64,000 bases of DNA from a plasmid. The notes under the pieces are model-generated. The model saw only the letters and a list, made by a program, of their open reading frames with translations. It made no database searches and was not told the DNA's origin. The stretch is taken from sequence record NZ_CP027239.1; one strand, given 5' to 3'. Numbering within the stretch: the first letter of the stretch is position 1; every line of letters begins with the position of its first letter. The translations under genes and the position numbers were made by a program. Shown here in pieces: positions 8,843 to 63,382 of the stretch.

Positions 8843-8852
8843 CTGCTGCACC
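8843..8852 (+). promoter_or_regulatory. CTGCTGCACC conserved upstream motif (representative copy)
   Basis: ~85 nt upstream of ATG 8936. Confidence 0.5.
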
Positions 8853-8935
8853 GCGGGGCGGGGACGTGACGATGGATCGGCATCACCCCGCGTAGTGGAC
8901 TGCGCGGGCCGCCCCGCAGCTCAAGGAGTACGACC

Positions 8936-9565
8936 ATGCCGAACTGGGCCACCTGCACCATCTCGTTCGCCGGACCCACCCAGGGGGTGGCGGCCATCCG
9001 CGACAGTCTCGCCCCGGCTCCGGCGGATCCGTCGGAGCTGCGGTTCGACTTCAACAAGCTGTTGCCGACGCCTTCCGAGTTGGATGCCGTCATCTCGCCG
9101 CTGCGGGTGGTGGAGACCCAGGAGGAGGCCGACGAGATCAACGGTGATTCCGACCGGATCTGGGCCGTCACGCGGGCGACGGCGGAGCGCTTCATTCAGG
9201 ACTTTGGTGCCGTCAACTGCCTCAACTGGCGACGGGCAAATTGGGGAACCAAGTGGAACGGGCACTGCGCCGAGATCCTCCTCGACTGCCCCGGCGACGT
9301 GATCGTGCGGTTCGACACGGCCTGGACCGAACCCGGCCAGCTGTTGCAGGCCATGAGCCAGAAGCACGGGCTGACCATCACCGGCGGAGTCATCTACGAA
9401 GACGGCAGCGAGTTCTTCCCCGTGGCCTACTACCCCACCGGGACTTGCGACACCGCCGAGGCCGCAGAGTTGTTCGCGCGGCGCTTCGTCGTACGTGAGG
9501 AGACCGTCTACGACCCGGACGAGCCTGAGTCCACCTGGGTCGACCGCTGGATCGAGCTGGCGTAG
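8936..9565 (+). CDS. DUF1281-like protein (MPNW... N-terminus)
   Basis: MPNWATCTISFAGP...FDFNKLLPTP matches the conserved N-terminus of the DUF1281/Api92-like family as I recall it. Confidence 0.65.
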   Translation: MPNWATCTISFAGPTQGVAAIRDSLAPAPADPSELRFDFNKLLPTPSELDAVISPLRVVETQEEADEINGDSDRIWAVTRATAERFIQDFGAVNCLNWRRANWGTKWNGHCAEILLDCPGDVIVRFDTAWTEPGQLLQAMSQKHGLTITGGVIYEDGSEFFPVAYYPTGTCDTAEAAELFARRFVVREETVYDPDEPESTWVDRWIELA

Positions 9566-9578
9566 AGGGGACCGCCCC

Positions 9579-9597
9579 CCGCCCGGTGCACGGGCGG
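9579..9597. terminator. hairpin (ccgcccg-gtgca-cgggcgg) between convergent genes
   Basis: 7-bp GC stem, 5-nt loop, between the stops at 9565 (+) and 9599 (-). Confidence 0.4.
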
Positions 9598-9598
9598 A

Positions 9599-10585
9599 TC
9601 AGCGGCGCCACGCCCGCACGAGGGTGTGGGGCGCTAGCGGGGCGTCCTCGGGGCCTTTGATGTAGGACTCGATCCACTGGGTTCGGCGCTGGGCACGGCC
9701 AGTCCCGTGGGCCTGCTGTCGCCAGTGCCCACGCACCACCCACCGGGTTGAGTAGCGGCGGCCGCTATCTTCGCTGCCGGCGGTCTCTTCCGGATCCGCG
9801 GGGACCGTTCGCATGGGCCGGGCATCGACGACCCGCACCTGCCCGACGGGCACCGTCACCGACTCAGCAGCCCTGCTCTCGCCTGTCCGCGGCTGCACGT
9901 CCCGGGCGCGGGCCACGGCCGGCATCGCCATCAGATGCAGGGCCGCCGCCAAGAACGCGGCCACCCCCAGGTTTCGGGAGAGGCCTTGTCCTTTCCAGTC
10001 ATCGGGGATCGAGACGCTGTCGGTGAAGTCGACTGGCATCGGCAGTGTGGCGCTGAAGTGGTCGATCAAGCCACCGCGGAGAGATCGGAGCGGTTCCGGC
10101 TTATTCTCCATCTTCGTAAGAATTTCGATGTGAATCCCGTTTTCAGCCGGGAACCATAACAGTCCGTCGATTGGAACGAGGTCATCCGCAAGCCGGCTGT
10201 CGCCGGGGGAGACCTGGGCTCTCTTTCGCTCGAAGGAAGAGCGGCCGGGCAGTGATGTCTCGAACACCATCATCCCGACCGGCCATGTTACGTCCTGTAT
10301 ATCGAGGCCAGGTATGTCCTGTGAAGCGTCCATTGTGATGTCTGCCATGTCCGAGGACACCCAGAACAGTTCCGCCTCACAAGCGGCGTCAGCAGCGTCC
10401 TCCATGCGGCGAAAGTCCAGCAGGAGCCCATCAACTGCAGACTGCTGGGTGGCCTCGTCGAAGCCCATCCGAGTGGCCTTGTCCAGAAGCTCGTCGGCCT
10501 GCTTCGGCCGCTCACGGTAGTTGCGAACCAGGTTGTCTCGGAGCCCGGCCACCGCGTACGGGGACCAGGACTGCTTGCGTCTCAT
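9599..10585 (-). CDS. hypothetical protein (328 aa; only the C-terminal part of the 545-aa track ORF)
   Basis: Start MRRKQSWSPYAVAG at complement(10583..10585). The track ORF extension to 11236 is antisense to the + gene 10727..11167. Confidence 0.6.
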   Translation of the reverse strand: MRRKQSWSPYAVAGLRDNLVRNYRERPKQADELLDKATRMGFDEATQQSAVDGLLLDFRRMEDAADAACEAELFWVSSDMADITMDASQDIPGLDIQDVTWPVGMMVFETSLPGRSSFERKRAQVSPGDSRLADDLVPIDGLLWFPAENGIHIEILTKMENKPEPLRSLRGGLIDHFSATLPMPVDFTDSVSIPDDWKGQGLSRNLGVAAFLAAALHLMAMPAVARARDVQPRTGESRAAESVTVPVGQVRVVDARPMRTVPADPEETAGSEDSGRRYSTRWVVRGHWRQQAHGTGRAQRRTQWIESYIKGPEDAPLAPHTLVRAWRR

Positions 10586-10726
10586 CGGCGGAGAGTGATG
10601 GGTTCGGTCATCCCAGAATCGTAGAACGTCCACACGTCCGCGGGCGGAGCTTGTGAACTGCTGCACCCGCGAGAGCCGGGCAGAGGGTGGAGCCACCAAC
10701 CCACCCCTGGACCGGAAAGCCCCGAC

Positions 10727-11167
10727 ATGACCTCCACGCTCGATTGCCCCACCGCCACCAACCTCAACGAGCTGCCCCACATCCCGCACCCCGAGTTCAA
10801 GTCCCGCGTCCTGCCCACCCTCAAGGGCAAGGGCCACCAGCCCGGCAAGGGCATCGGCCAGTACACGACCGGCGCCACCGACGAGGGCTGGGGCCGCGTG
10901 TACGTCGTCGTGACCCCCGAAGTGGACTGCCCCACCGTTCTGCGGCGCCCGCGCGCCCGCTCCAACACCCGCCCGATGGCGCTGTTGCTGCCGCGCCTCG
11001 ACGAGGGCACCTACCCGCACCTGGTCGGGCTGGCCCGCAGCTACAGCCACGAGTTCGTGCTCCGGGAGGCCGTCGGCGACGACGCGGGCCGCGCGGTGTG
11101 CGTGATCCGGCCCGGCAAGGTCGCCGCCCCGCACTGGACCCACCGGCGCCGCGACCCCCGCCACTGA
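10727..11167 (+). CDS. hypothetical protein
   Basis: 146-aa ORF divergent from the preceding minus-strand gene. Confidence 0.6.
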   Translation: MTSTLDCPTATNLNELPHIPHPEFKSRVLPTLKGKGHQPGKGIGQYTTGATDEGWGRVYVVVTPEVDCPTVLRRPRARSNTRPMALLLPRLDEGTYPHLVGLARSYSHEFVLREAVGDDAGRAVCVIRPGKVAAPHWTHRRRDPRH

Positions 11168-11244
11168 GCGGACGGGACCGCCGCAGTCGAGCCGATCTCT
11201 CGGCGAACCCGGTTGCGGCGCCCCGCGGACGTGCACGGGGCGCC

Positions 11245-11276
11245 GTCTCCCCGGGAGACAACTGCTACTCCTGTCC
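11245..11276 (+). promoter_or_regulatory. palindrome GTCTCCC-c-GGGAGAC + CTGTCC composite element (copy 4)
   Basis: Followed by CTGCTGCACC at 11315 and ATG at 11386. Confidence 0.5.
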
Positions 11277-11314
11277 GGTTCTTCTTCGAGGTCAACCGGT
11301 ACCTGCGATCAGTT

Positions 11315-11324
11315 CTGCTGCACC
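11315..11324 (+). promoter_or_regulatory. CTGCTGCACC conserved upstream motif (representative copy)
   Basis: 62 nt upstream of ATG 11386. Confidence 0.5.
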
Positions 11325-11385
11325 GCCGGCAGGCCATCAGAGGGTGGAGTCACCACGAAGAACCCACCCCTGAGGAGCTCGCCAT

Positions 11386-11773
11386 GACCGACATCCTGAC
11401 CGCCCCTGCCGCCGGTGCCGCCGCGCAGGAGCTCACCTCCACGCCGCGCCTGGCCACCCTCGTCGACGCCGCCCTGGGCGCTTACGGCGACTGGGGAGCG
11501 GCGACGGCCACCCTCGACGCCTGCACTGGCTCGGCCGTCGAGGTGGAGACAGCCCGCGTGGCCAAGTACGACGCGTACTGCCGCTACAACCGACGGATCG
11601 ACTCCCTCGCGGAGGCCTCCGGCCACCTGATCGCCGTCGACGCGCTGGCGAAGTTCACCGGCACCAAGTACGCGGTCGATGCCGGCATCCGCTACCTCCA
11701 CGCCTCCAACGCCGCCTGGGAGCACGCCCTGGACAACCCCGAGGACTACAACGGCCTCTTCGACCCGCACTGA
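11386..11773 (+). CDS. hypothetical protein
   Basis: GAGGAG RBS. Start context cctgaggagctcgccatgacc is identical to that of the gene at 12742. Confidence 0.65.
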
Positions 11774-12390: not shown

Positions 12391-12741
12391 TTGCAGAGAC
12401 TAGCGACGCCGCCCATTCTCAGTTCGCACTATGTCCAGAACCTTCTCTGCGGTCCCCTTTTCAGCCAGGTTCGTCGTCTCGGCGGCGCCCTCGATCGTCG
12501 AGCAGGCTTCACCCCGATCAGCGACGTACTCGGCCTGGTGGACGACGACGCCGCCAGCAAGCTCTCCCGCACTCGGCTCGAGCGACCGCAGCCCCTCCAG
12601 ATGGCGGGGTCGGCGCGTTCTCGTCCTGTCCGCCGGACCCGATGGCATCTTCGCAGGCCCGCACCTCTGGGCTGCCAGGCTGCTGCTGCACCGCGGTCGG
12701 CCCGGCGGAGAGTGGTGGCACACCGACCTGAGGAGCTCGCC

Positions 12742-13008
12742 ATGACCGCCAACGCCCAGTACGCCGCCGACGCCGCCCGCACCGCCGCCCGACTGATCGA
12801 GTCCGGCGCCATGAACGCGGACGCGACCTGCGCAGAGGCCGCCGGAGTCGCCGCCCGCCTGCAGCCCGAGGCCGCCGCGGTGGTCGACTCGCTCGCCGTC
12901 ATGCCCGCCAGCCCCGAGTATCAGGCCGCTGTCGACTGGAACAACGCCCTGCTCGACCTGCTGATGTACGCACACGCCCAGGACGCGGACGCGCCCATTT
13001 CAGCCTGA
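12742..13008 (+). CDS. hypothetical protein
   Basis: GAGGAG RBS. CTGCTGCACC 50 nt upstream. The track ORF start at 12391 is an upstream extension. Confidence 0.55.
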   Translation: MTANAQYAADAARTAARLIESGAMNADATCAEAAGVAARLQPEAAAVVDSLAVMPASPEYQAAVDWNNALLDLLMYAHAQDADAPISA

Positions 13009-13557: not shown

Positions 13558-13589
13558 GTCTCCCCGGGGAGACACCGGCCCGCCTGTCC
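13558..13589 (+). promoter_or_regulatory. palindrome GTCTCCCC-GGGGAGAC + CTGTCC composite element (copy 5)
   Basis: Perfect 8-bp-arm palindrome, then ctgtcc 10 nt downstream. Confidence 0.5.
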
Positions 13590-13709
13590 ACCCAAGATGC
13601 CTGGTCACGGCCACTCGACGCGCGGTTGTGCTGCACGGCCAGAGGCCTCCCGCATCGTTGCTCTCACATGGAGCGGGACCGGCCCGCGCCCGAGTGTGAG
13701 GAGCCCACC

Positions 13710-14240: not shown

Positions 14241-14459
14241 TCAGTGGGCGGCCCGGTCAGCCTGGCGCGGGGTGTGCGCCGGCGGCTCGGGCCGCCATGG
14301 GCGTCGCCTGTCCGCCGGCGGCGGCCAGCACGAAACGGCCCGCCACGTGTGTCGACGCTGCCCGCCAGACAGACGCGCCCCTCGAGACGCTGCTGCACCC
14401 GGGCGGGGCGCCTCGACAGTGGGGGCATCACCCGTTCCCGACTCCCCAGGAGATGACCC

Positions 14460-14729
14460 GTGACTACTCCCACCACCGGCCCGTTCTGCCAGGCCGAGCC
14501 CGACACCAGCCCGAACGCCGACGGGCAGGCCCACGTGGCCTACTACGCCGGCCACACCTCCTTCGTCTGGAACGGCGGGGACCTCATCGGCGTGTGCCCC
14601 GGCGGCTACGGCGAACCCATCACCGACTGGATCCCCGCGCCCCACGGCGCGGCCGAGATGACGACGGCGCAGGCGCTGCTGTGGATCGAATCCGCCGCCG
14701 ACCTGTACCTGACCAGCCAGCGGACGTAG
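14460..14729 (+). CDS. hypothetical protein (GTG start)
   Basis: AGGAG RBS. CTGCTGCACC 65 nt upstream. Confidence 0.55.
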   Translation: MTTPTTGPFCQAEPDTSPNADGQAHVAYYAGHTSFVWNGGDLIGVCPGGYGEPITDWIPAPHGAAEMTTAQALLWIESAADLYLTSQRT

Positions 14730-14937
14730 CCGGCAGCCGGGCCGGGCGTCGCCGCGCACACCGCCGGTGATGCCCGGCCACTGCCGTCGGCTCATCTCGA
14801 AGGTGGCCGCGCCGCCCCCAACGCTGTCCGCTCGATACCCAGGTCGCAGGTGCAGGGCCGCCGCTCTCACCTGCTGCACCAGGCGAAGCCGGCGAGACGC
14901 TGGAACCACACCGCAGCAGCCAGCCCCCGGGAGGACG

Positions 14938-15516: not shown

Positions 15517-15765
15517 GTGCGCCCTTTCAAGAGGTTTCCGATGGGTTGTAGGCGCAGGTGCCGCGCCCACCGGCCAGACGGTAACAGCGGCCCATGCCGG
15601 CGCCTGGGTTCCCAGCGAGGGCGGTAATGCCTCGACCTGTCCGACCACTCCCCCGGCCCGGCCAGGGCGGTCGGCTCGCGTGCGCCAGGCGCCGGTTCTG
15701 GCAATGCTGCACCGGCACGGGCCGGGCAGATAGTGGAGGCACACCCACCACCGAGGAGGCCTCCG

Positions 15766-16440: not shown

Positions 16441-16474
16441 GCGTCTCCCACGGGAGACGCCGCGATTCCTGTCC
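16441..16474 (+). promoter_or_regulatory. palindrome GCGTCTCCC-ac-GGGAGACGC + CTGTCC composite element (copy 6)
   Basis: Seen directly. TGCTGCACC follows at ~16547 and ATG at 16613. Confidence 0.5.
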
Positions 16475-16612
16475 GCGTCCCTTGGCTGCTCACACCCCAG
16501 CGACGGCCGATCGACATGACGCGGAACAGGCTGATTTCAGCGGTGCTGCACCTGCTCGCGGGGGCACCAACGTGGTGGGCGAAGGCACGTCACCCACCTC
16601 CAGGAGGCAGCC

Positions 16613-17420: not shown

Positions 17421-17620
17421 CACCGCCGTGACGTGCACCAAGCAGCGACTCGACGACTCGGGAATAATGCCACTGCCGGCGCGTGTACCGATTCACGCAT
17501 GCCCCCGGTGCCGGCCGCAGCCCAGCGGCGTGGCGGGAGCCCCAGCCGCCCTCGGCAGCCTGTCCGAAGCGGCACGACCCGGCCGTACCCTAAGACGGCC
17601 GCCTACCCGCCAGAGGAGCT

Positions 17621-31141: not shown

Positions 31142-31245
31142 CCGGCGGGCCGCATACCAGGCGGTCGCCCAAATCGCGTGGGTGCTGCACCTGTCGTAGG
31201 CGTGTTGGACGATCGCGGCACGCCCACCAACGAGGAGGAGCAACC

Positions 31246-34598: not shown

Positions 34599-34824
34599 GA
34601 ACCTTCCGGGAAAGTCGCCGAGGCATACCGCTCGGGCGTTTGTCTGGGCTGGTTGGAGAGGTAACCGTATCGGCGGTCCTTGCCGGCTGTGGTGCCGCGA
34701 AGAAAGCAATCAGGCCCGGCCGCTCAGCGATGCTGCACTCTGTCGGGTCGATTGCAGTGTTGAGCCATCAAGCCCACGCCATCCGGTCGTGGGGGTACGT
34801 CAAAGGAGTTACCCATGGAGCCGA

Positions 34825-35443: not shown

Positions 35444-35584
35444 CCTCGTACGACGTGCAGGCCGCCGCCCGCTGGGTTGGTGGGGTCGCGAGGCGGTGAG
35501 TGAGTGGCTTGCAGACTGCTGCACCGCGCCGGCTGCAGCGGAGAGTGAGTGCAGCCCGTTCACCCACCCCTCAGGAGGCTCACC

Positions 35585-35959: not shown

Positions 35960-36158
35960 TCGCGCGGGCAGGGCCCGCTCGAGTGCAGACGGGGCGGGCT
36001 CTGCCCGCTGCCTGGGCACGCGGGCGCACTGTCCGTGATTAGCCCCAGGCCGGCGTCCTGCCGCTGGTCTCGGGCGTGCTGCACCGACACGGGCAGGGGA
36101 GAGGGTGGAGCCCGACCGGCCCGCCGCCCTTGGGCCATCTGAGACGAGGAGGAAGACC

Positions 36159-36980: not shown

Positions 36981-36990
36981 ACTGCTGCAC
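36981..36990 (+). promoter_or_regulatory. CTGCTGCACC conserved upstream motif (representative copy)
   Basis: 76 nt upstream of ATG 37066. Confidence 0.5.
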
Positions 36991-37065
36991 CTGTCGCGGG
37001 CGCCGAGACAGTGGTTGCAGACAGCGACGCGAACAGCGCGGAGCGCCCGAGGCGAGGAGCCCATC

Positions 37066-37449: not shown

Positions 37450-37639
37450 CGGGCAGACCATAGGCCCCGCACCCGAACCGGGTGCGGGGCACTTCTTTGC
37501 GCCACGGTCCCGCTGTCCGAGCTGCTGGCTGCCGCAGCACCCTTCGCAGAGGACGGGGCCTGGCGATCTCGCCTGCTGCACTTCCCGAAGCGCATCCGAT
37601 GCTGATCGGGACATGCACCCCTGGCGGAAGGACACCCCG

Positions 37640-38582: not shown

Positions 38583-38692
38583 GTCGGCGGGCCCCTCCGG
38601 GGCCCGCACCGGGCGGGCGGCTGGCGCTGTCCGGCCAGGTCGAAGCACGGCCGGTCCCGCCGAAGGGAGGGGCAAGCGAGCGGTCGGCGGCA

Positions 38693-38702
38693 CTGCTGCA
38701 CC
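38693..38702 (+). promoter_or_regulatory. CTGCTGCACC conserved upstream motif (representative copy)
   Basis: 59 nt upstream of ATG 38761. CTGTCCG lies 61 nt further upstream. Confidence 0.5.
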
Positions 38703-38760
38703 CGCGGCAACGGCGGAGACGCTGACGGGGCAGTACCCACCCCGCTCGAGAGGAACCGCC

Positions 38761-39123: not shown

Positions 39124-39310
39124 GCCTGGCACTGGGTGGGGCCACGGGCCTCGCCCAGCGCCTGCCGTCCCGGGCCCGCGCTGTCCGGGGGTCGGCAGGC
39201 CAGCCGCGACCTGCGGTGAGAGTCGCAGCCGTCGACGACTGCTGCACCTGGCGGACGAGAAGGGAGCGTCTTGGGCAGCGACGAACCCCGACAAGCCCAG
39301 GAGCAGACCG

Positions 39311-40216: not shown

Positions 40217-40626
40217 GGGGGCGCTGCTATCCGCTGGGCCGGGGCGGTCCGCACCGGTGGGGCACTGCTGGTTGGTGGTGCGCTTGAACGTAGCCTCCTG
40301 GCCCCTCCTCGCGAAGTGGAGTCGTGCGCTTGCCCGGGCAGGAAGTCCTACGTTCGCGTGAAGAACTAGACAGGTCGTCCACACCGCCGCGGGCTAACCA
40401 AGCCGCGCTGTCCGCAGTTCAGCTGGGACACGCGCCCTCCGCCCAATCGCGAGGCGATCATTGCTCCCGCAGGCGGCGCTACCCGCACGTCGTTGATTCC
40501 GAACCTTTCCCCGGCCTGCGCACGGCTGCTGTGGTTGCCGCCGGACTCGGTGAGGGTGCTGCACCGTCAAAGCTCAGGGGCACAGTGGGCTGATCGGAAA
40601 CACAGCCCGCGTCGAGGAGGCCCCTG

Positions 40627-42033: not shown

Positions 42034-42260
42034 CTGAGCGCTGCGCGCACGGTACGGGCGGCTGTCCGCCGCTCGCTGCGCAACATCTGCAGGGTCGACG
42101 ACATCGCCGATGGGGCGTCCGCCATCTTCGAGCCGGCGCTTCGCGGCTGTCCGCGCCGACTGCCCCACCACCTGCCGGTCCTTCCCTCGGCGCTGCTGCA
42201 CTCTGCGCGGCGGGAGGCAGGGTGATCGAACCCGATACCCCGTGACCGAGGAGCGAAGAG

Positions 42261-43461: not shown

Positions 43462-43656
43462 ACGGCCCGACCGCGCCCACCCCGAACTCGAGGGGGTGCG
43501 CGCGGTGCCGCGGCGAACGCTCGCCCTGTCCGGCCCCAGCGCAGCACCGGCCAGCGGCAAGGCGGACCCGCACAGCCTCACCAGCGGCAGCTGCTGCACC
43601 CGCGAAACCGGGGGAGAGGCTCAGTGCATCCCGCAGACCCACCCCAGGAGGCCCCG

Positions 43657-45080: not shown

Positions 45081-45188
45081 CCACTCCCACCCCGCCGGTC
45101 GCCTTGGCCGCCGGGGTGGGTTCCGGCCTGCCAGGGGATAGGGCTGTCCGCCGCCGGTGGCGATCATGGGCGGCCTAATCTCCACGAC

Positions 45189-45758: not shown

Positions 45759-45955
45759 CTCTGGCGCTGCAGTTCGCCGGTTAGGTTCCGGCTTCTCAGG
45801 GGAGCTGTCCGCTGATTCGCCTGGTCTCGGCACTGATGGTGGCGTGATGGTCTGCTGCACCGGCGGGGTGGGATCACACGGCCCTGCTAACCCAAAAACT
45901 ACCTTTACAGATGTAGAGGCGGGCAGTTAGCCACCCACTCGATAGGAGCAAGACC

Positions 45956-46234: not shown

Positions 46235-46571
46235 AACCCCACACCTGCGCCCCGCCATCACGCGGGGCGCTTTCCGTTCTCGGCGCTGCGGGCTGTCCGC
46301 ACCGCCGGCGCCGCCGCGCACCTTCACTAATTCGCCTGAGCCCCGCCTCGGCCAGCGGGGCGTTCATCGTTCCCCCCGACCACGCGATCAGCACACGGGC
46401 CACGCGTGAGGTCCGCGACGCCAGACTCTGCTGCACTCGCGGACCGCCAGGGCACAGTGAGCACACCCGGTTCGCCAACACGCGGCGACCGAAACAAGTC
46501 CCGGGCCCCCGTTGCTGACCACGCGCGGCGGGGGCCCGCACACACGACAGCAACACGAGAACGAGGTCACT

Positions 46572-48396: not shown

Positions 48397-48474
48397 GCGT
48401 CCCGGTGCACGACACCGTGTCGGACTGTCCGAATAGTCTGAACCAGACCCAGGCGAACAACGGAGGACCCACCG

Positions 48475-48987: not shown

Positions 48988-49170
48988 ATTGACGCGCGGG
49001 AGCCGTCGACCGGCCACGGCCTGTCCACGCCGTCACCGCGGGGCGCCCCAACGAAACCGGCGCCATCCGACCGGTGCATGGAGCTGCTGCACGCCCAGGC
49101 GGCGGCGGCACAGTGTGGGCATCTCACCTACCCAACCGGGGCGGGTGACCGGCCCGAAAAGGGGAGCCCG

Positions 49171-50186: not shown

Positions 50187-50401
50187 GCGAACACCGTAGG
50201 ACGGTCGAGCACTCACCACGCCCACTGTCGTAGACCGCCTCGTATCTCCCGGCCTGTCCGCAGCCCCCGCCCTGACTCTGCTTCCCCTCCCGGTTCGCTC
50301 GCATGGCCACCGTGCAGTAGCTGCTGCACCTCGCCGATGCCGGGAGATCGTCGGAAGGAGCCGCCCGATCGGGTGGCCCGACCACGACGAAGGGCACCGC
50401 G

Positions 50402-51170: not shown

Positions 51171-51479
51171 CTCGACGTACCCCTTGGGGTTTGGGCCCTC
51201 GCCGGCTGCGTGGGCCTGTACCTCTTCACTGGGAAGCCGCAAGGTTCACAGCATCACCCCGCGATCCGACCGGGCCCTGAGCTCGCTGACAGTCACTACA
51301 TCTGGACCAGCTGACCCGGACCTGCCGCGCAAGGGGAGGGGCCGGCCACCCGCCGGGCTGTCCGAACCGGGGGCCAGGTCAGCGCATCGAACCTCCGCAG
51401 CCGATACCGCGGTACTGCTGCACCCCGAGGGAGCGGGCAGAAGGTGGAGGCGACAAACGACATCGCCCAGGAGGACGCC

Positions 51480-53260: not shown

Positions 53261-53418
53261 TAGAGAGCCCTTTGGATCTCCGCTGAGGCGGGGCGCCCGC
53301 CGCGGGGCGCCGGCGCTGTCCGGGCCAGCCGGCAGAGCGTTGGCCGCCCGCCGCCACCCGCTGCCGCCCGGGGCGAGCCGCCGCCGGCGAGCGTGCGGCG
53401 CCGTGGCCCGCGCGAGTG

Positions 53419-53428
53419 CTGCTGCACC
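53419..53428 (+). promoter_or_regulatory. CTGCTGCACC conserved upstream motif (representative copy)
   Basis: 60 nt upstream of ATG 53488. Confidence 0.5.
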
Positions 53429-53487
53429 CGTCGACTCCGACGAGAGGCTGGCCACGTCACGCAGCCCACCCCGAAGGAGCCCCCTAA

Positions 53488-53903: not shown

Positions 53904-54146
53904 CCCCTCCCAACGGCCCCGGCCCCAGCACGCGGGGCCGGGGCCCTCTCGCTGCCGCCCACCCGGCCGCTCTGTCCAAACGCCCGCAGGTCGCTCGTGG
54001 ACCTGCCGCAGCGGCATGACCGGCCCATACCTTTACTCCAGCTCATTGACAGGTGGGTTCTCTTCTCCGCCTCGCAGATCTGCTGCACCGGCGCGAGGCA
54101 CCGAGACGATATGGGCACACATCCAGCCAGCACAGAGGAGCAGGCC

Positions 54147-55072: not shown

Positions 55073-55296
55073 CCGCCTGACCCCAGCGGCGGTCAACGGA
55101 CCAGCCCCCGGCGGATCCCCGCCGGGGGCTGCACTTTCGCCCGAGCTCGCTGGCCCCCCTGTCCGCTTCGCCCGCCGAACGCACACCGCCAGCAGGCCCT
55201 GACATGGCGTGTGATCTGCGCGTTTATGGCTGCTGCAGTTTCCGGACGGCGCGAAACGATGAGTCGGTCAGCGCATCCGGATGGAAGGGGAACAGC

Positions 55297-55922: not shown

Positions 55923-56126
55923 CACACCACTGACGTAGCCGCTGCTGCCCGCCTCGCTCATTCCGGGGCGGGCAGCGGCGATTTCGCACTCCCCTCGGGC
56001 GGCTGGCTGTCCGGCCACGCCCCCCGGCCGCGGCACCGCCGGCGTCTCGGCAGAGCTGTGCCGGCATGCCCGTCGGGTTAACTGTGCGGACCCCGCCGAC
56101 TGGCAGAGGCGCGACCGTGAAAAGAG

Positions 56127-57049: not shown

Positions 57050-59158
57050 GTGTGTATCGCAGAAGACCAGCCCGGCGGGCCCAAAAGGTGCCCAGCCGAC
57101 ACCGCCAAAGCGGTCGCTGACGCAGAAGCTCGAGTGCAAGCGATCCTCGCCCAGCGAGAGGAAATCGAAGCCAACCTCGCCCTGATCGAAGCGAAGTTCC
57201 TGTCCGGTGACCCTGCAGCGGTCGCCGCGGACCTGGATAGCGCCAAGACCGACCTCGACTTCGCCAAGACCGACCTCGAGGAAGCGAGCGAGCACCACGG
57301 CCTTCAAGAGAAGCTCGCCCAGGCACAGAAGACGCCAGCGCAGACCTACCTCGAATCCACCGAAGCAGACCTCGCCCAAGCCGAACTGGACGCCGACGAA
57401 GCCCGCAAGGCCTACCAGCGGGTACAGCGCAAGACCTCCGCCGCGAAGAAGAACCTCGCCGAAGGCGAGACGACCTCCCCCGAACTGGAAGAGCTCGAGC
57501 AGCAGAAGCTCGAAGCCAAACTCCACTGGGACACCTGCAAGGCAGATGTGAAGCTGCAGGAAAAGCGCGTCGCCGAAGCCGGCCAGTTCATCAAAGACGA
57601 GAACCTCGGCCGTGAATGGGCCGCATCCACAGACCTGCCAGAAGAAGAGCGGGATGCCTACCTGGCTGGGCTGTCCGACGAGGATCTCGAGGCGATCGGC
57701 CGGTACCAGGCCCACGGTCTCCGGGCCGAGATTGACGAAGCGCTGCCCGTTGGCGGGACTCCGACGATCGACGACCGTGAACGTGACACCAGCATCTACG
57801 GTCCTGGCACCATCACCTGGCACCACGGTGGCGCGGTCGAAGAGGTCGAAGGTCGAATCCTGGACGCCGACACCGCCATCTACCGCAAGGGCTACGGCGA
57901 CTTTTACATCCTGCTCAAAAACGGTGACGAGTACGAAACTGTCGGGCAGGCCGATTCCAAGGCCGCAGCAGTGGCCCAGGCGAACCAGATTCCGGTCCTG
58001 ACCCAGATGGAGCCGCTACCTGACGGTGCCACTGAGCTGCAACGCGAGGTGTGGCAAGCCAAGGCGGAACTGCGGGCAGGTGCAGCGGAGCAAGCCGCGG
58101 TGGTCTCATCGGCGAAGGCCCAAGCCGAGGCGCGGGCAAAGCTCGCCGACGTCGAGGGGGCAGCCCGGGACCGCGTGGTGGACCTCAGCGTGGTGGGCCC
58201 GGTCCAGGCTGAGGCCAGGGACGGCCGGCTGCGGCACGTCAAGCGCGAACGGGAGAAGGCCGCCGACGCCGCTGGAGCCAAGGCCCGCGAGGAGGCGCTG
58301 GCTGCTGGAGCGTCGGCGGCGGACGCGGACAAGGCGTACGAGACGGCCCGGCGGAAGTCGCTGGGCACCGTGACGCTGCGCGGCGGGGTGATCCCGCATT
58401 TCAACCACCGCATCCCCCCCGAGAGTCTGGGGCAAGACGGCTACAACGCCCTGGCGCGCAGTGGCATCCGCGCATGGGGCGTGGAAACGGCGAACGACTA
58501 CTCCGTGATCGGGAAACGACTCGGCAGCCCGCAGTCGTGGGGGTTCCACGGTGGGCCGCACAATCTGCAGACGTCGAATATCGACGAGCTGACCAACCGG
58601 GCCAGGCCCTTCCTGAACAACGAGCTCACCGCAGCGGAGCGCAAGTCCCTGACGGCCTACACGGGCGGGATCTACCAGAGCATCAACGCCGCGGTCACCG
58701 GGCGGGACAAGAACCCGGCGTCGAGCATCGCCACCCACGTCTCCCGAATTGAGTCAGCGTTCGGCAAGTTGGCGGCCTCCCAGAAGCACGCGGAGCCGAT
58801 GGTCGTCGTGCGTGGCACGGGCGTTCCGTCGGGTTGGAAGGGCACCACGAAGGAATTTCTGGACAAGACCTTCACCCCAGGCAGTCGCGTCGAGATTGGA
58901 AAAATTACCTCTACCAGCACCAAAACGTCGATCGCTTCCGGGTTCGGCAACGGTAAGGACCCGTACGTCATGGCGATCCGCTCACGCACCGGGCTGGCGG
59001 TCAAGAGCATCTCCAGTCACAGTCACGAAGATGAGGTGCTGATGACGATGGGCACCAAGATGCGCTGCGTCGACATCCAGGAGAAGGGGATGCACGGCCG
59101 CCCGACCGTCTACCTCGTGGAAGAGGACCTCGTCGCTGAGGCCGAAGATGGGCTGTGA
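57050..59158 (+). CDS. C3/VIP2/SpvB-type mono-ADP-ribosyltransferase domain protein with long N-terminal coiled-coil/acidic region
   Basis: C-terminal domain has LTAAERKSLTAYTGGIYQSINAAVTG (the E..A...YT...Y..IN NAD-pocket helix), VVVRGTG (Arg), KITSTSTKTS (STS motif) and HEDEVLM (E-x-E). N-terminal ~450 aa is Ala/Glu/Lys-rich. Confidence 0.85.
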   Translation: MCIAEDQPGGPKRCPADTAKAVADAEARVQAILAQREEIEANLALIEAKFLSGDPAAVAADLDSAKTDLDFAKTDLEEASEHHGLQEKLAQAQKTPAQTYLESTEADLAQAELDADEARKAYQRVQRKTSAAKKNLAEGETTSPELEELEQQKLEAKLHWDTCKADVKLQEKRVAEAGQFIKDENLGREWAASTDLPEEERDAYLAGLSDEDLEAIGRYQAHGLRAEIDEALPVGGTPTIDDRERDTSIYGPGTITWHHGGAVEEVEGRILDADTAIYRKGYGDFYILLKNGDEYETVGQADSKAAAVAQANQIPVLTQMEPLPDGATELQREVWQAKAELRAGAAEQAAVVSSAKAQAEARAKLADVEGAARDRVVDLSVVGPVQAEARDGRLRHVKREREKAADAAGAKAREEALAAGASAADADKAYETARRKSLGTVTLRGGVIPHFNHRIPPESLGQDGYNALARSGIRAWGVETANDYSVIGKRLGSPQSWGFHGGPHNLQTSNIDELTNRARPFLNNELTAAERKSLTAYTGGIYQSINAAVTGRDKNPASSIATHVSRIESAFGKLAASQKHAEPMVVVRGTGVPSGWKGTTKEFLDKTFTPGSRVEIGKITSTSTKTSIASGFGNGKDPYVMAIRSRTGLAVKSISSHSHEDEVLMTMGTKMRCVDIQEKGMHGRPTVYLVEEDLVAEAEDGL

Positions 59159-59180
59159 TTGGGGCAGTTGATCGTCGGTG

Positions 59181-59190
59181 CTGCTGCACC
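59181..59190 (+). promoter_or_regulatory. CTGCTGCACC conserved upstream motif (representative copy)
   Basis: ~85 nt upstream of ATG 59274. Confidence 0.5.
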
Positions 59191-59273
59191 GCGCAAGCCC
59201 CATGATTGACTCGATTCATACCAACGGACTGAGCCTTACACCGAGGAGGACTCACCACCGGAAAGGACACGAC

Positions 59274-59480
59274 ATGAAGGTCAGCAAGGAACAGATCCAG
59301 ATTCTGAACGAGCACATCGCAGAGAACCCGGACCAGGGGCCGCACGAGATCGCCCGCTACATCGCCCGCATCACTGACATGGGTGAAGACGACACTTTCG
59401 CCCTGGCCACCATCGTGAAGCACCTCAAGAACGGCGACCCGCTCCCGGCCGCGTACCTGGCCGAAGACCAGGGCGACTGA
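59274..59480 (+). CDS. hypothetical small acidic protein between the transferase and hydrolase genes
   Basis: GGAAAGGACACGAC-ATG. 68 aa. Its stop overlaps the hydrolase start. Confidence 0.5.
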   Translation: MKVSKEQIQILNEHIAENPDQGPHEIARYIARITDMGEDDTFALATIVKHLKNGDPLPAAYLAEDQGD

Positions 59481-60583
59481 TGAGCCAGGCAGACAACACG
59501 GCCCGCTACGCCAACGCGCTGATCGGCGGAGCCGCCGGCGACGCCTGGGGCTACCAGGTCGAGTTCACCAAGTACCCGAAGATGCCCGCCTACCCCGTGA
59601 GCCCGCCGGCCGGCGACTGGATCATCTCCGATGACACCCAGATGCTGCTGGCGACCCACAACGCGCTGCACGATGTCGTGGACTTCGATGACATCGACGA
59701 GGTGGCCGAGGTGATCCTCGACCGGTACCTGGACTGGGCGGTAGACCCAGACAACAACCGAGCGCCCGGGACGACGTGCATGAGTGCGCTCTGGAACATC
59801 GAATCGGGCAAGCATTGGAACGCCGGCGGTGCCCGCTACTCGGCGGGCTGCGGCGCGGTCATGCGGCTGGCCCCGGCTGCGTTCGCCCCGCAGCAGTACC
59901 GGCGAGGTCTGGCCGTGCTGCAGGCCGTCGTCACCCACCGCCACCCCAAGGCCGCCCTGTCGGCGCTGCTGCTGTGCGATGCCTTCACCGTCGCCGGCCA
60001 GGCACCGCTCCTGGAGCACGCCCGAGCTGACCTGATGACGCTCGCGACCCGCCTGCCGGATGCGTGGGCAGACGACGACTACCTCCTGCGAGTCCTGGCC
60101 CTGCTGACCGACGACCCGCACGCCTACCTGTCTTCCGCACTTGGCCCCGAGCCCGGCCGTCGCGGGCCGTCGATGGAGCAGGCGTTCACCGCAGCGGCAG
60201 AACGTCTGGCCATCGAAACCCACTCCACCGGCTGGGCTGGTGACCCCTGCGCCGGAATCGGCGAAGGTTGGGACGCAGCAACCGCCACCGCACTGGGGAT
60301 GCTGGCCGCCGACCTGCACCGCAACGGCCGCCTCGGCCCGGTGGAGGCCATTGCCTGGGCGGCGACCAGCAACGGCGACTCCGACTCAATCGCCACCCTC
60401 GCCGGCGCCCTCATCGGAGCCGCCAGCAGCGACCCCGGATTCTGGGGCGACCACCAGCTGGGCCTATGCCTGGAGCCGCGCTACGCAGACGAAATCGACA
60501 ACGCCGCATCGCAGGGCCCCGCAAGCACCCTGGCCGGGGTATCAGCAGCCATGGATCGACCAGTGGGCCTGACAGGCGTCTAG
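59480..60583 (+). CDS. ADP-ribosylglycohydrolase (DraG/Tri1-like)
   Basis: GGAAGDAWGYQVEF and SDDTQMLLA motifs characteristic of the ADP-ribosylglycohydrolase family. 367 aa. Confidence 0.85.
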   Translation: MSQADNTARYANALIGGAAGDAWGYQVEFTKYPKMPAYPVSPPAGDWIISDDTQMLLATHNALHDVVDFDDIDEVAEVILDRYLDWAVDPDNNRAPGTTCMSALWNIESGKHWNAGGARYSAGCGAVMRLAPAAFAPQQYRRGLAVLQAVVTHRHPKAALSALLLCDAFTVAGQAPLLEHARADLMTLATRLPDAWADDDYLLRVLALLTDDPHAYLSSALGPEPGRRGPSMEQAFTAAAERLAIETHSTGWAGDPCAGIGEGWDAATATALGMLAADLHRNGRLGPVEAIAWAATSNGDSDSIATLAGALIGAASSDPGFWGDHQLGLCLEPRYADEIDNAASQGPASTLAGVSAAMDRPVGLTGV

Positions 60584-62253: not shown

Positions 62254-62275
62254 CGTGGGTTCTCCTTTGCGGTGG

Positions 62276-62749
62276 TCAGCTCTGGTCTTCGCCGCGGGCG
62301 TGGAAGGCGGTGATGGACTCGGTGATTCCGTCGACGATTTCGGGGATCGAGGTGATGACTCCGACCTCGTTCTGCAGTAACGTCAGCGCCTCGGCGCTCA
62401 GGGGCAGACTGTCGCCTGTCTCGGGATTCCCGGCCTGCAGAACCACTGGTCCGTGAAGGACCGCGTTGTCTGCGCCGAGTGCCTGGGCGAGCACTGTTGC
62501 CGCCATGTTCCGGGGCCGCTCGTAGGCGGACATGCGCCCGTACCAGAAGTCGAGTGCCATGCCGTTCAGCACGGCGGCAAGGCGCGGCCCGGGCCGTCGG
62601 TTGAGGGACGGGTTGACGGGCAGGACCTCGGCTCGTCGGGCGCCGATCAGAGGGTAAATGTCCTCCAGGTCGTGAATGTGCGGCTGAGTCTCGACAGGCC
62701 AGGTCGTGCCGTCGACGGCGATCACGAGTGCGGTGGCTTGGTTGCTCAT
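62276..62749 (-). CDS. DUF3846-like protein (paralog 3 of 3)
   Basis: ALVIAVDGTT...LHGPVVLQAGNPETGDSLPLSAEAL. Confidence 0.65.
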   Translation of the reverse strand: MSNQATALVIAVDGTTWPVETQPHIHDLEDIYPLIGARRAEVLPVNPSLNRRPGPRLAAVLNGMALDFWYGRMSAYERPRNMAATVLAQALGADNAVLHGPVVLQAGNPETGDSLPLSAEALTLLQNEVGVITSIPEIVDGITESITAFHARGEDQS

Positions 62750-62771
62750 GGTGGGTTCTCCGTTGTGGTTG

Positions 62772-63269
62772 TCAGTGGTTCTCGGAGTGGGTGCGCAGGA
62801 TGGCTACGCCTCCGGCGGGTTCGCTGGTCAGCGATTCCAGGTAGAGGGGGCCGTTGCCGTTGGGGGAGCGGACCTGGAGCCGGCCGCCGGGGAGGGCTTC
62901 GATGTGCCAGCCGCAGACCATTGCGGACTGGGTGTCATCGCTGGGGACCGCCTCCGGCTGGTAGTCCCACAGCTTGATGGGGTTGGCTGCGCCTCGGACC
63001 CAGGGGTTGGGAACTTCCTGTCCGATTAGGTCTGCCCGCTCGGGGGCTGCGCCGAGCTCGAAGACAACCTTCCCGCCGCTGTCGTCTGGGCGGCTGTGGC
63101 CGAGGACGCGCCACACGCCGACGATGGTGTTGTCGCGCACGGCTGCCAGATAGTCGCCGTAGCCGCGGATCGACTCCTCTGCGACCTTCCAGTACTTGCT
63201 CGCGGCCTCCATGAGCTGCTGTTCGGTGACGGCTCCCACGGCCGATCGGCTGACGTTTACAAGGATCAT
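62772..63269 (-). CDS. hypothetical protein (start MILVNVSRSAVG)
   Basis: GAGAGAGGG RBS. The track ORF extension to 63446 covers the AT-rich palindrome and promoter motif and is probably non-coding. Confidence 0.5.
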   Translation of the reverse strand: MILVNVSRSAVGAVTEQQLMEAASKYWKVAEESIRGYGDYLAAVRDNTIVGVWRVLGHSRPDDSGGKVVFELGAAPERADLIGQEVPNPWVRGAANPIKLWDYQPEAVPSDDTQSAMVCGWHIEALPGGRLQVRSPNGNGPLYLESLTSEPAGGVAILRTHSENH

Positions 63270-63298
63270 GTCCGGTCCCTCTCTCGATGTTGTGACGC

Positions 63299-63313
63299 TA
63301 TCTAATTTAGATA
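63299..63313. promoter_or_regulatory. AT-rich palindrome TATCTAA-t-TTAGATA in divergent intergenic region
   Basis: Perfect 7-bp arms. Unusual in ~70% GC DNA. Confidence 0.4.
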
Positions 63314-63372
63314 CGCACGGCCTTGTTGTCAATACGTCTTTGGAAGATGTTCCGAGGTTCTGAACCGAGACG

Positions 63373-63382
63373 CTGCTGCACC
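63373..63382 (+). promoter_or_regulatory. CTGCTGCACC conserved upstream motif (representative copy)
   Basis: 65 nt upstream of ATG 63447. Confidence 0.5.

Follow-up and report, generated by a model that had tools for sequence, protein, structure and literature searches.

Layout of the window and a repeated intergenic motif

Here we describe a short sequence element that recurs in front of small genes in a 64,000-nucleotide (nt) stretch of a plasmid (sequence record NZ_CP027239.1), which at its full length we call the window. The window looks like part of a large plasmid from a Dietzia-like member of the Mycobacteriales. Its backbone—ParA with a ribbon-helix-helix-like (RHH) partner, a DnaC-like ATPase, a second ParA-like protein, and a bona fide RecG-type helicase—is free of the element and is flanked by long same-strand arrays of small genes, an arrangement also found on Rhodococcus megaplasmids and on pCRULAC1 of Corynebacterium crudilactis. 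Because ~68% of the window is G+C, genes were called by third-position GC bias.

A preliminary description of this DNA had reported a 10-mer in ~28 plus-strand copies, always intergenic and typically 55 to 90 nt before an ATG, and its account of copy number and placement held up. The 8-mer core of the motif, TGCTGCAC, occurs 29 times on the plus strand and once on the minus strand (position 269, intragenic), where ~1 copy is expected; YTGCTGCAC is present 22 times, always on the plus strand, compared to 1.5 copies predicted from shuffles, and CTGCTGCACC 18 times compared to 0.3. An unbiased k-mer count places TGCTGCAC as the most enriched 8-mer of the whole window and likewise first in its intergenic DNA. 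All 29 plus-strand copies are intergenic, compared to an intergenic share of 26% of the window. Each of the 27 positions listed earlier was recovered, at most 10 nt off, with that at ~55232 being a one-mismatch variant (CTGCTGCAGT); four sites were absent from that list, at 10658, 13628, and 34730 and, with one mismatch, at 4123. The distance from the T of the motif to the start codon is 58 to 103 nt, with one case of 143 nt and a median of 68.5 nt. A plus-strand start codon preceded by GGAGG-like sequence follows 28 of the 29 copies, and a convincing downstream open reading frame (ORF) is likewise present in 28, the exception being the orphan copy at 34730. The partition and replication backbone genes at 17 to 31 kb lack the motif, so it does not stand before every gene, and most of the genes that it would drive belong to no recognized family.

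A bipartite element with promoter-like geometry

The 10-mer is one half of a bipartite element, which reads CTGCTGCAC(C), 15 unconserved G-rich bases, and GAnnGT(GG). Taking the T of TGCTGCAC as position 0 and counting all plus offsets from it, A+25 is found in 27 of the 29 copies and T+29 also in 27; the surrounding guanines are less strict (G+24 in 19/29, G+28 in 20/29, G+30 in 19/29, and G+31 in 18/29), and A+36 is enriched (18/29). The box ends at +7/+8 and the downstream hexamer starts at +24, with the same spacing in 28 of 29 copies and one additional base in the copy at 31182. The edge of this family is sharp: when A+25 and T+29 are required, zero to one mismatch yields 28 matches on the plus strand and 1 on the minus strand, whereas at two mismatches the strands are even (10 and 12, respectively), that is, noise. 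The units are as follows, with coordinates, strand, sequence of both halves, and distance to the downstream start.

4123..4160, +, one-mismatch variant CTGCTGCAAT, then GGGACCGT, A+25, T+29; 90 nt to ATG of ORF 4214-4678
8843..8880, +, CTGCTGCACC N15 GACGAT; 92 nt to ATG of ORF 8936-9565 (DUF1281_C match)
10658..10695, +, CTGCTGCACC N15 GAGGGTGG, A+36; 68 nt to ORF 10727-11167
11315..11352, +, CTGCTGCACC N15 GAGGGTGG, A+36; 68 nt to ORF 11384-11773
12683..12720, +, CTGCTGCACC N15 GAGAGTGG, A+36; 58 nt to ORF 12742-13008
13628..13665, +, GTGCTGCACG N15 CATCGT; 81 nt to ORF 13710-14240
14390..14427, +, CTGCTGCACC N15 GACAGTGG, A+36; 69 nt to ORF 14460-14729
14871..14908, +, CTGCTGCACC N15 GACGCTGG, A+36; 68 nt to ORF 14940-15182
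15704..15741, +, ATGCTGCACC N15 GATAGTGG, A+36; 61 nt to ORF 15766-16074
16543..16580, +, GTGCTGCACC N15 CAACGTGG; 69 nt to ORF 16613-17071
31182..31219, +, GTGCTGCACC, GACGAT shifted by +1 (longer spacer); 63 nt to ORF 31246-31500; 42 nt past the RecG-like helicase gene
34730..34767, +, orphan, ATGCTGCACT N15 CAGTGT; only a 28-codon ORF (34815) downstream
35516..35553, +, CTGCTGCACC N15 GAGAGT, A+36; 68 nt to ORF 35585-35959 (DUF3846)
36076..36113, +, GTGCTGCACC N15 GAGGGTGG; 82 nt to ORF 36159-36419, followed by the XRE gene 36573-36974
36982..37019, +, CTGCTGCACC N15 GACAGTGG, A+36; 83 nt to ORF 37066-37449; starts 9 nt past the XRE stop codon
37573..37610, +, CTGCTGCACT N15 GATGCT; 66 nt to ORF 37640-38083
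38693..38730, +, CTGCTGCACC N15 GACGCT; 67 nt to ORF 38761-39123
39239..39276, +, CTGCTGCACC N15 GAGCGT; 71 nt to ORF 39311-39820; orthologous promoter at 16973 of contig L003 (see below)
40556..40593, +, GTGCTGCACC N15 CACAGTGG, A+36; 70 nt to ORF 40627-41073; orthologous promoter at L003 20749
42193..42230, +, CTGCTGCACT N15 CAGGGT, A+36; 67 nt to ORF 42261-42707
43591..43628, +, CTGCTGCACC N15 GAGGCT, A+36; 65 nt to ORF 43657-44415
45852..45889, +, lacks T+29, CTGCTGCACC N15 CACGGC, A+36; 103 nt to ORF 45956-46234; ~87% identical unit at L003 19549
46428..46465, +, long leader, CTGCTGCACT N15 CACAGT, A+36; 143 nt to ORF 46572-46781
49084..49121, +, CTGCTGCACG N15 CACAGT, A+36; 86 nt to ORF 49171-49437
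50321..50358, +, CTGCTGCACC N15 GATCGT; 80 nt to ORF 50402-50821
51415..51452, +, CTGCTGCACC N15 GAAGGTGG; 64 nt to ORF 51480-51821
53419..53456, +, CTGCTGCACC N15 GAGGCTGG; 67 nt to ORF 53487-53903
54080..54117, +, CTGCTGCACC N15 GACGAT, A+36; 66 nt to ORF 54147-54284, followed by the DUF2786/DUF7168 gene 54344-55072
55230..55267, +, one-mismatch variant CTGCTGCAGT, then GAAACGAT, A+25, T+29; 66 nt to ORF 55297-55557
59181..59218, +, lacks A+25, CTGCTGCACC, then GATTGACT, T+29; 92 nt to ORF 59274-59480
63373..63410, +, CTGCTGCACC, then GGAATCAT, A+25, T+29, A+36; 71 nt to the ORF from 63445 onward

Promoters of the sigma-70 family share a geometry of A-11 and T-7 followed by the start site at +1, and these two bases are the ones that every sigma-70-family factor needs. 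Because the two invariant bases of our element stand four apart, 16 to 17 bp past the box and ~7 bp before a preferred purine, we infer such a geometry here. A-11 and T-7 would then be present in 27 of 29 copies each, and in 100% of 16 orthologous pairs described below; the upstream element stands at a fixed spacing from the −10 hexamer, for which 16 to 18 bp is usual in this family, and the box itself spans ~−37 to −28. At the place where the housekeeping class has a TTGACA-like −35 hexamer, the window has CTGCTGCAC(C), which bears no likeness to TTGACA. The element is therefore bipartite in the manner of a promoter, probably combining a normal −10 (A-11, T-7) with a foreign −35 box, and transcription is predicted to start ~7 nt past the −10-like box, at the preferred A. 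The idea that the 10-mer is the −35-like box of an element-specific promoter had been raised in the preliminary description, and it gains support from the A+25/T+29 partner at −10 distance, which had gone unseen. Our interpretation is that the window carries ~31 near-identical bipartite promoters, with the 10-mer as their upstream (−35-position) box, and we put the probability of this reading at roughly 0.7.

Two more familiar promoter classes do not fit. A consensus scan of 35 to 55 kb found no canonical TTGACA/TATAAT promoter. Extracytoplasmic function (ECF)-type promoters, as read by group 4 sigma factors, have AAC in the −35 element, a −10 element of CGT/GTC type, and the cognate sigma gene close by; the box here has CAC and not AAC, and none of the 83 ORFs of the window has a Sigma70_r2/r4 match better than ~E=1e-4. 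The high information content of the motif recalls ECF promoters, but this is only a resemblance.

Past +36, the leaders have a median length of ~32 nt and are A/C-rich and T-poor, leading into a GGAGG-type ribosome-binding site. In 12 of 28 units the leader contains CCCACC(CC) directly upstream of the GGAGG, 19 to 27 nt before the start codon (e.g., at 10705, 11370, 35570, and 43640), which may be a translation-related leader element.

The orphan unit at 34730 adjoins a 103-nt segment (~34825-34927) that is 97% identical to ~33155-33257, the 3′ end of ORF 32184-33254. This duplication suggests a local rearrangement that stranded the putative promoter.

Conservation in relatives

Proteins of the window recur unchanged in sequence in two assemblies, on contigs of a fragmented one from NCBI and of one from Logan. 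The best named relative is a contig of Dietzia sp. (L003), whose RecG-like helicase is 83% identical. This contig has nine copies of TGCTGCAC, all on the gene strand, compared to ~1 expected; they keep the A+25/T+29/A+36 geometry, and their spacers are unrelated to those of the window. Scanning metagenomes with the pattern CTGTCCG-N35-65-CTGCTGCACC-N15-GANNGT, which includes a heptamer treated below, returned 24 contigs, of which 15 are high in G+C, come from one project (Ga01941xx), and carry two to eight copies each, on one strand per contig. The remaining nine are single-copy contigs, mostly of lower G+C and about the number expected by chance. Two of the metagenomic contigs (L142 and L158) carry the motif without detectable DNA similarity to the window.

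The promoters of orthologous genes provide the clearest view of what is kept. Among 16 orthologous promoter pairs, whose proteins are 51 to 91% identical, the upstream DNA is ~40% identical, that is, essentially random, whereas A+25, G+28, and T+29 are kept in 100% of pairs and G+24, G+30/31, A+36, and +38 in 75 to 88%; positions 0 to 7 are identical by construction in this comparison, and some of the pairs are not independent. Since only two pairs of paralogs exist among the motif-driven genes, the shared signal is not a by-product of gene duplication. Some homologs of the cargo genes lie on motif-free plasmids and have different upstream sequences there.

Megablast of 35 to 55 kb against plasmid and phage collections gave no close DNA relatives. 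Distant blastn had two kinds of match only, one to the XRE gene (on five Dietzia plasmids) and one to a patch of 46 nt in Arthrobacter phages. A viral scan with a 14-base pattern gave single-copy matches per viral contig only, as chance would. TGCTGCAC is absent from pCRULAC1 and from the Rhodococcus plasmid pB and is not above chance in the Dietzia plasmid pDK313-79. Two candidates on pB of Rhodococcus pyridinivorans (L136) were discarded: GTTGCGTTGC, which had at first the look of a strand-biased motif, is part of a 27-nt tandem repeat of ~10 copies (6590-6990) inside a DUF2637 protein gene on the opposite (minus) strand and no promoter, and units resembling GTGCACC-N14-16-(C/G)AnnGT are too few and too variable to count.

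Plasmid pDK313-79 of Dietzia kunjamensis (L134) has a repeat of its own. At least 60 nt recur in three copies upstream of small genes (5270-5400, 14810-14940, and 16710-16840) and carry two tandem, operator-like CACTAGTG palindromes followed by TAGTAT; two of the three also resemble each other further upstream, where they have TTGGACA. We take this for a repeated promoter/operator of another kind, carried by a conjugative Dietzia plasmid with which the window has the XRE gene in common.

A proposed regulon and its reader

On the promoter reading, each copy would drive its own short transcription unit, and the ~31 units, individually promoted and terminated, would form one regulon seated in the accessory arrays of the Dietzia-like plasmid. 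A unit would comprise a ~32-nt unstructured A/C-rich leader, GGAGG, a single small gene (in some units two or three), in most cases without a recognized family, and a GC-rich terminator-like hairpin; the short unstructured leader and strong ribosome-binding site would make for efficient translation. With a −10 that is weak but correctly spaced (A-11, T-7, and G/C at −12), the polymerase would need a dedicated factor to recognize the promoter, which could be an alternative, orthogonal (ECF-like) sigma factor or an activator that makes the housekeeping sigma factor independent of a −35 element, on the model of MotA at the middle promoters of phage T4.

Several points weigh against this reading. 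Promoter function is argued from geometry alone, and position −12 is G/C, not T. The box matches exactly at 8 of 8 positions in 29 copies, sharper than in most sigma regulons, and such sharpness could instead reflect a sequence-specific DNA-binding protein, e.g., a repressor, as the main constraint. None of the 83 window ORFs has a Sigma70 family match better than ~E=1e-4, no sigma factor is annotated on the related plasmid pCRULAC1, and we know of no Mycobacteriales sigma consensus that the box fits.

In the search for a reader, the 83 ORFs went through Pfam, NCBIfam, and PHROGs summary scans, 30 window proteins were compared to Pfam one by one, and two backbone proteins were searched by sequence against the PDB. 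As candidates for a sigma factor or another reader, the window scans gave only the helix-turn-helix (HTH) of the XRE protein and a faint Crp-like HTH in ORF 23180-23908; among ten proteins of the metagenomic relatives there were a primase-winged-HTH protein, an AAA ATPase, and a RES toxin pair, and none was a sigma factor. The XRE and RHH proteins had both been put forward as binders. The former (36573-36974) has a 69%-identical homolog on pDK313-79, where TGCTGCAC occurs only at chance level, and the latter sits in the ParA operon, the usual place of a partition adaptor; its sequence looks like a tandem ribbon-helix-helix and has no Pfam or PDB match. With an XRE homolog on a motif-free plasmid and the RHH protein in a partition operon, both proposals are therefore unsupported. 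Because the −10 half keeps A-11/T-7 whereas the −35 box is unlike TTGACA and unusually sharp, the most likely reader is RNA polymerase together with a dedicated specificity factor, and this factor is most likely encoded outside the window or by the host.

CTGTCCG and hairpins upstream of the units

A second sequence, CTGTCCG, had been reported upstream of many copies, and this too is borne out. It occurs 40 times on the plus strand and 9 times on the minus strand; 26 of the plus-strand copies are intergenic, compared to 1.8 expected, and 16 of the 29 motif copies have it 45 to 104 nt upstream. Intergenic copies always point in gene orientation. Distances to the box range from 45 to 149 nt overall and cluster at 45 to 48, 57 to 61, 64 to 70, and 75 to 83 nt; a circular statistic is highest near an 11-nt period, computed over units that are not independent. 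The flanks of CTGTCCG are unconserved in the window and in close relatives. The intergenic copies are as follows.

3110..3116, +, past hairpin 3084
5736..5742, +, past hairpin 5709
11271..11277, +, past hairpin 11245; 45 nt before the motif copy at 11316
12626..12632, +, 58 nt before the motif of unit 12683
14308..14314, +, 83 nt before the motif of unit 14390
14824..14830, +, 48 nt before the motif of unit 14871
15637..15643, +, 68 nt before the motif of unit 15704
16469..16475, +, past hairpin 16443; 75 nt before the motif of unit 16543
17560..17566, +, no motif copy downstream; 65 nt before ORF 17625-17861
36029..36035, +, 48 nt before the motif of unit 36076
37513..37519, +, 22 nt past terminator-like hairpin 37464-37490; 61 nt before the motif of unit 37573
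38627..38633, +, 67 nt before the motif of unit 38693
39181..39187, +, 59 nt before the motif of unit 39239
40408..40414, +, 149 nt before the motif of unit 40556
42062..42068, +, 132 nt before the motif of unit 42193
42147..42153, +, 47 nt before the motif of unit 42193
43526..43532, +, 66 nt before the motif of unit 43591
45144..45150, +, no motif copy downstream; 64 nt past the preceding stop codon, 75 nt before ORF 45219
45805..45811, +, 48 nt before the motif of unit 45852; exact start of an 87%-identity block shared with L003
46293..46299, +, 22 nt past terminator-like hairpin 46247-46270; end of the block shared with L003, 10 nt beyond the first base of the heptamer and directly behind it
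48425..48431, +, no motif copy downstream; 29 nt past the preceding stop codon, 50 nt before ORF 48475
50254..50260, +, 68 nt before the motif of unit 50321
51358..51364, +, 58 nt before the motif of unit 51415
53316..53322, +, 104 nt before the motif of unit 53419
55159..55165, +, past a strong GC-rich hairpin; ~72 nt before the variant copy at 55231
56007..56013, +, no motif copy downstream; past a hairpin, 85 nt past the preceding stop codon

Given its unconserved flanks, CTGTCCG was rejected as a −35 or −10 element in its own right. The promoters of PafBC, the RecA-independent DNA damage regulator, have the consensus tTGTCRgtg-N8-TAnnnT; a PafBC box was likewise rejected, as the flanks are unconserved, no −10-like element stands at a fixed distance, and the promoter may follow anywhere between 45 and 149 nt further on. 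Set on its own between promoter and upstream terminator, CTGTCCG is a second site, which could serve an auxiliary protein or act as an insulator.

In most units a GC-rich hairpin follows the previous stop codon and CTGTCCG comes next; two of the hairpins have T-tails, and six read GTCTCCC-N-GGGAGAC. The latter sequence, with one or two central bases, is a perfect inverted repeat just past stop codons, with CTGTCC(G/A) ~10 nt further on, and occurs in five copies in another contig (L147) as well; a conserved terminator hairpin is one possible reading, a palindromic site bound by a protein another. These six hairpins, for which no strand is assigned, are as follows.

3084..3098, past the stop of ORF 2411-3022; CTGTCCG begins 26 nt from the hairpin start
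4828..4843, GTCTCCC-N-GGGAGAC; the variant CTGTCCA is next
5709..5724, GTCTCCC-N-GGGAGAC; CTGTCCG begins 27 nt from the hairpin start
11245..11259, 78 nt past the stop of ORF 10727-11167; CTGTCCG begins 26 nt from the hairpin start
13558..13573, GTCTCCC-N-GGGAGAC; the variant CTGTCCA is next
16443..16458, 13 nt past the stop of ORF 16140-16430; CTGTCCG begins 26 nt from the hairpin start

Intergenic CTGTCCG is common to the Dietzia-like elements (window and L003) and to Corynebacterium pCRULAC1. In the pCRULAC1 array (L137, 1080-14980) its strand ratio is 23:1 (plus to minus), and it is embedded in a longer repeat, ACGTAAAGACCnGA-CTGTCCG (ACGTAAAGACCnGACTGTCCG). A strand bias of CTGTCCG in pDK313-79 was discarded as a codon effect (CTG-TCC) on the coding strand, because nearly all copies there are intragenic and only intergenic copies are meaningful. 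All nine of the checked intergenic CTGTCCG units of pCRULAC1 with a downstream GGGCA box read ttCCGGGCA(C/T/G)-N18-GGGAnnGT, with the A exactly 25 nt and the T exactly 29 nt away from the first G. The upstream boxes of window and pCRULAC1 have GCAC in common, two bases out of register. The matching A/T spacing indicates that the −10-like box is common across genera and that the upstream box differs, which suggests common polymerase/−10 recognition combined with a lineage-specific reader of the upstream box. A bolder proposal, which we regard as tentative and on balance doubtful, is that Mycobacteriales megaplasmids with a ParA/RecG-like backbone carry a self-contained orthogonal transcription system, in which a specificity factor with no sigma-70 domain that can be detected would recognize an upstream box particular to each lineage (CTGCTGCAC in Dietzia, CCGGGCAC in Corynebacterium) together with the common GGGAnnGT, with CTGTCCG upstream at preferred distances, and would switch on ~30 establishment/anti-defense genes, each with its own promoter, as a block after transfer; box and reader would coevolve from one plasmid lineage to another.

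Alternative explanations

The main rival is that the 10-mer is primarily the operator of an element-encoded repressor, either overlapping the −35 of self-sufficient promoters, for a transient "zygotic" burst of expression after transfer as on Bacillus plasmid p576 or at anti-CRISPR/Aca loci, or acting as an orientation-specific roadblock. We hold this to be improbable; it is also compatible with promoters, as one box could serve both roles. The site is asymmetric, of one orientation, intergenic, very sharp, and present in ~30 copies, much like the stoperators of mycobacteriophages (PMC9283540, PMC6550527), and repressor-controlled repeated promoters define the establishment regulons of the pLS20 family (PMC8708921); the repeated promoter of pDK313-79, with its two operator-like palindromes, is a further precedent, from a Dietzia plasmid. 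On the other hand, besides the box there is nothing TTGACA-like at −35, and the −10 lacks T-12, so that promoters without the box would be weak; every copy has its −10-like partner at invariant spacing, of which a roadblock has no need; and the only clear HTH protein of the window, XRE, has its close homolog on a plasmid free of the motif.

Far less probable is a primary role of the repeats in recombination, as modules or cassette boundaries by which small genes are shifted about, comparable to the PeSL cassettes of T4-type phages or to integron attC sites, with their promoter-likeness secondary. Orthologous cargo genes do occur in different order in the window and in L003, the terminator-plus-promoter composite matches PeSL architecture (PMC2839356), and a 500-bp cassette at 45805-46303 is bounded at both ends by CTGTCCG in the L003 comparison. 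However, apart from this one block the ends of similarity blocks are not enriched at CTGTCCG, and neither it nor the promoter has statistical support as a cassette breakpoint: of 34 distinct left ends and 33 distinct right ends, just one each falls at CTGTCCG, and blocks starting at the 10-mer are explained by the conservation of the motif itself. No integrase or recombinase family is among the top Pfam or NCBIfam matches of the window ORFs, and recombination leaves the invariant A+25/T+29 unexplained. The cassette itself (CTGTCCG, promoter, 92-amino-acid gene, hairpin, and CTGTCCG) is 87% identical to L003 ~19500-20000, with much more diverged flanks, and is the sole case found.

Equally slight are the chances of an RNA-level motif, that is, a part of 5′ leaders transcribed from upstream that would act as a processing site or as a site for an RNA-binding protein or small RNA, giving uniform 5′ ends or translation control. 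Its strand specificity and constant placement upstream of ribosome-binding sites, together with the A/C-rich composition and the CCCACC(CC) that the leaders have in common ahead of the Shine-Dalgarno sequence, would suit such a role, and the start-associated sequences of Cluster K mycobacteriophages provide a precedent, from actinobacterial mobile elements, for repeated pre-gene motifs (PMC3203893). Yet folding of the segment from the box to +42 shows no excess over shuffled sequence (mean z = −0.2), and with DNA parameters and the whole intergenic region the two boxes have pairing probabilities of 0.61 and 0.62 compared to 0.60 elsewhere, with partners that vary among copies. A hairpin of the box with the GTGGnGGCA region was rejected, as no more than 6 of the 29 copies have both complementary triplets (TGC..CAC and GTG..GCA) and folding is not in excess; Rfam gave zero matches in the window. 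No excess folding, background pairing, and no Rfam match therefore make an RNA motif and a hairpin-type single-strand promoter unlikely. In addition, the spacing between the boxes is invariant whereas the Shine-Dalgarno sequence and ATG follow at varying distances (58 to 143 nt), the units are set apart by terminator-like hairpins rich in G+C, and the conserved A-N3-T 16 to 17 nt from the box is a DNA promoter signature.

Least credible of all are Frpo/ssi-like single-strand promoters, active only on the incoming transferred strand through a hairpin that mimics a duplex −35/−10: the leading-region-like context in which such promoters are known (PMC11541004) and the uniform orientation of the units would suit them, but the fold was rejected on the z of −0.2, on boxes paired no more than their surroundings, and on inconsistent partners, and the units, at ~40 nt, have no TTGACA/TATAAT-like sequences, whereas Frpo elements are long hairpins.

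Relation to known repeated elements

The middle promoters of T4 are read by the host polymerase together with an element-encoded adaptor; the MotA box (TGCTT core) is centered at −30, and both MotA and AsiA are needed. They resemble the window units in that a strictly conserved foreign box replaces the −35 next to a sigma-70-type −10 and that a single mobile genome has dozens of them (reviewed in PMC2988021); they differ in host and sequence, the TGCT in common being probably a coincidence. No homologs of MotA or AsiA turned up in the window, though no search was aimed at them.

Among the closest functional analogs are EGeRS1 and EGeRS2 of the pLS20 family from Bacillus (Val-Calvo et al. 2021, PMC8708921), repeats that stand upstream of many separate, highly variable establishment and anti-restriction operons on a conjugative plasmid and define their regulon. 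EGeRS1, however, spans 400 to 600 bp with multiple inverted repeats, compared to ~40 nt for a window unit, and EGeRS2 elements are strong sigma-A promoters under an RHH repressor, with ~4 to 5 copies per plasmid (PMC8708921). The window unit, by contrast, has a non-canonical −35 box and recurs in ~30 copies in 64 kb of an actinobacterial plasmid; the two were compared by description, not by sequence. Establishment/anti-defense-like genes in uniform orientation and a leading-region-like context are shared with the Frpo/ssi promoters (Samuel et al. 2024, PMC11541004), whose long hairpin mimicking a canonical −35/−10 has no equivalent fold in the window units.

Among phage elements, PeSL cassettes consist of terminator hairpin and promoter modules that flank small family-less genes in hyperplastic regions, with gene order mosaic between relatives (Arbiol et al. 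2010, PMC2839356; PMC4122927). The same composite of terminator stem-loop and promoter surrounds small family-less genes in the window, but PeSL promoters are canonical strong sigma-70 promoters with demonstrated recombination, for which a single example lends support here. The stoperators of Cluster A mycobacteriophages, asymmetric sites of ~13 bp in ~24 to 36 copies, occupy short intergenic gaps of an actinobacterial mobile element in one orientation and are read by a monomeric protein (PMC9283540, PMC6550527). An asymmetric, one-orientation, intergenic multicopy site is also what the window has; stoperators, however, are repressor roadblocks without a −10 element, whereas the window copies have a −10-like partner and no immunity-repressor homolog was identified. 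The SAS/ESAS of Cluster K are repeated asymmetric one-orientation motifs upstream of many genes, precede non-structural genes, and are absent from host genomes (PMC3203893), but they lie 3 to 7 bp from the start codon and overlap the ribosome-binding site, whereas the window motif lies 58 to 143 nt upstream with a −10-like partner.

Because the window element lacks defining features of each of these families, we describe it as a variant within the repeated early/establishment promoters; the repeated promoter of a mobile-element early/establishment regulon is, judging from sequence, its best description. Nothing of relevance to the motif string, to pCRULAC1, or to promoters of Dietzia plasmids came up in literature searches, and in the literature searched we found no equivalent repeated regulatory sequence described for actinobacterial plasmids. 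Repeated regulatory sequences are how establishment and anti-defense regulons were recognized on F-like and pLS20-like plasmids. If the units are promoters, the motif marks ~30 mostly family-less genes as one coregulated set, and the related motif would do likewise for the Corynebacterium arrays and possibly for Rhodococcus plasmids; the resulting gene list would hold candidates for new anti-defense and establishment functions in the Mycobacteriales. The sharp non-canonical box implies a dedicated reader that would be reachable by DNA pull-down, and those who engineer Corynebacterium or Rhodococcus may be able to use it as an orthogonal signal for expression. CTGTCCG, present across genera, is an additional signal to which the same approach would apply. 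We consider the observation solid and moderately surprising, with the reader of the box and the cross-genus CTGTCCG most worth experimental follow-up.

Plasmid context and gene content

Some of the families recognized in the window are typical of establishment/anti-defense regions: SRAP, DUF3846, DUF2786/DUF7168, DUF1281_C, an ADP-ribosyltransferase/ADP-ribosylglycohydrolase pair, and a weak AcrVA2-like match. The related plasmid pCRULAC1 carries conjugal-transfer, FtsK-like, SSB, and DUF87 genes, and pDK313-79 also has conjugation genes. A leading region adjoins oriT on the side that is transferred first and has its genes on the transferred strand; in the window itself there is neither a relaxase nor an oriT. 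At the left end, a minus-strand gene has 37% identity to a gene of pCRULAC1 that is located next to the transfer genes, with 1.9 kb between it and the array that it faces. The corresponding gap of the window (626-2410) is rich in repeats, and this likeness lends indirect support to a leading-region-like position. The gene context resembles the establishment/anti-defense (leading) region of a conjugative plasmid, and the comparison to plasmid leading regions or phage early regions that was drawn initially fits the ParA/RecG-like backbone, these families, and the conjugation genes on related plasmids.

Several further features lie within or between the arrays. An IS1182/IS5-family transposase gene (DUF772 and DDE domains) occupies 18026-19501 on the minus strand, between the left array and the partition/replication backbone. 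Within the left array, ORF 9599-10585 runs on the opposite (minus) strand and encodes 328 amino acids; the weak AcrVA2-like (anti-CRISPR) Pfam match comes from the precomputed annotation of an identical contig, and a Pfam scan of the window ORF gave no match. At 57050-60583, genes for an ADP-ribosyltransferase (702 amino acids) and an ADP-ribosylglycohydrolase (367 amino acids) flank a 68-codon ORF with its own promoter copy at 59181, and the two enzymes could form a toxin/antidote or anti-defense pair. Finally, between the left-end minus-strand gene and the first plus-strand array gene lies a 1.8-kb segment (626-2410) of 73 to 75% G+C that has no confident gene and many direct and inverted repeats, and this segment is a candidate origin region (oriT or oriV).

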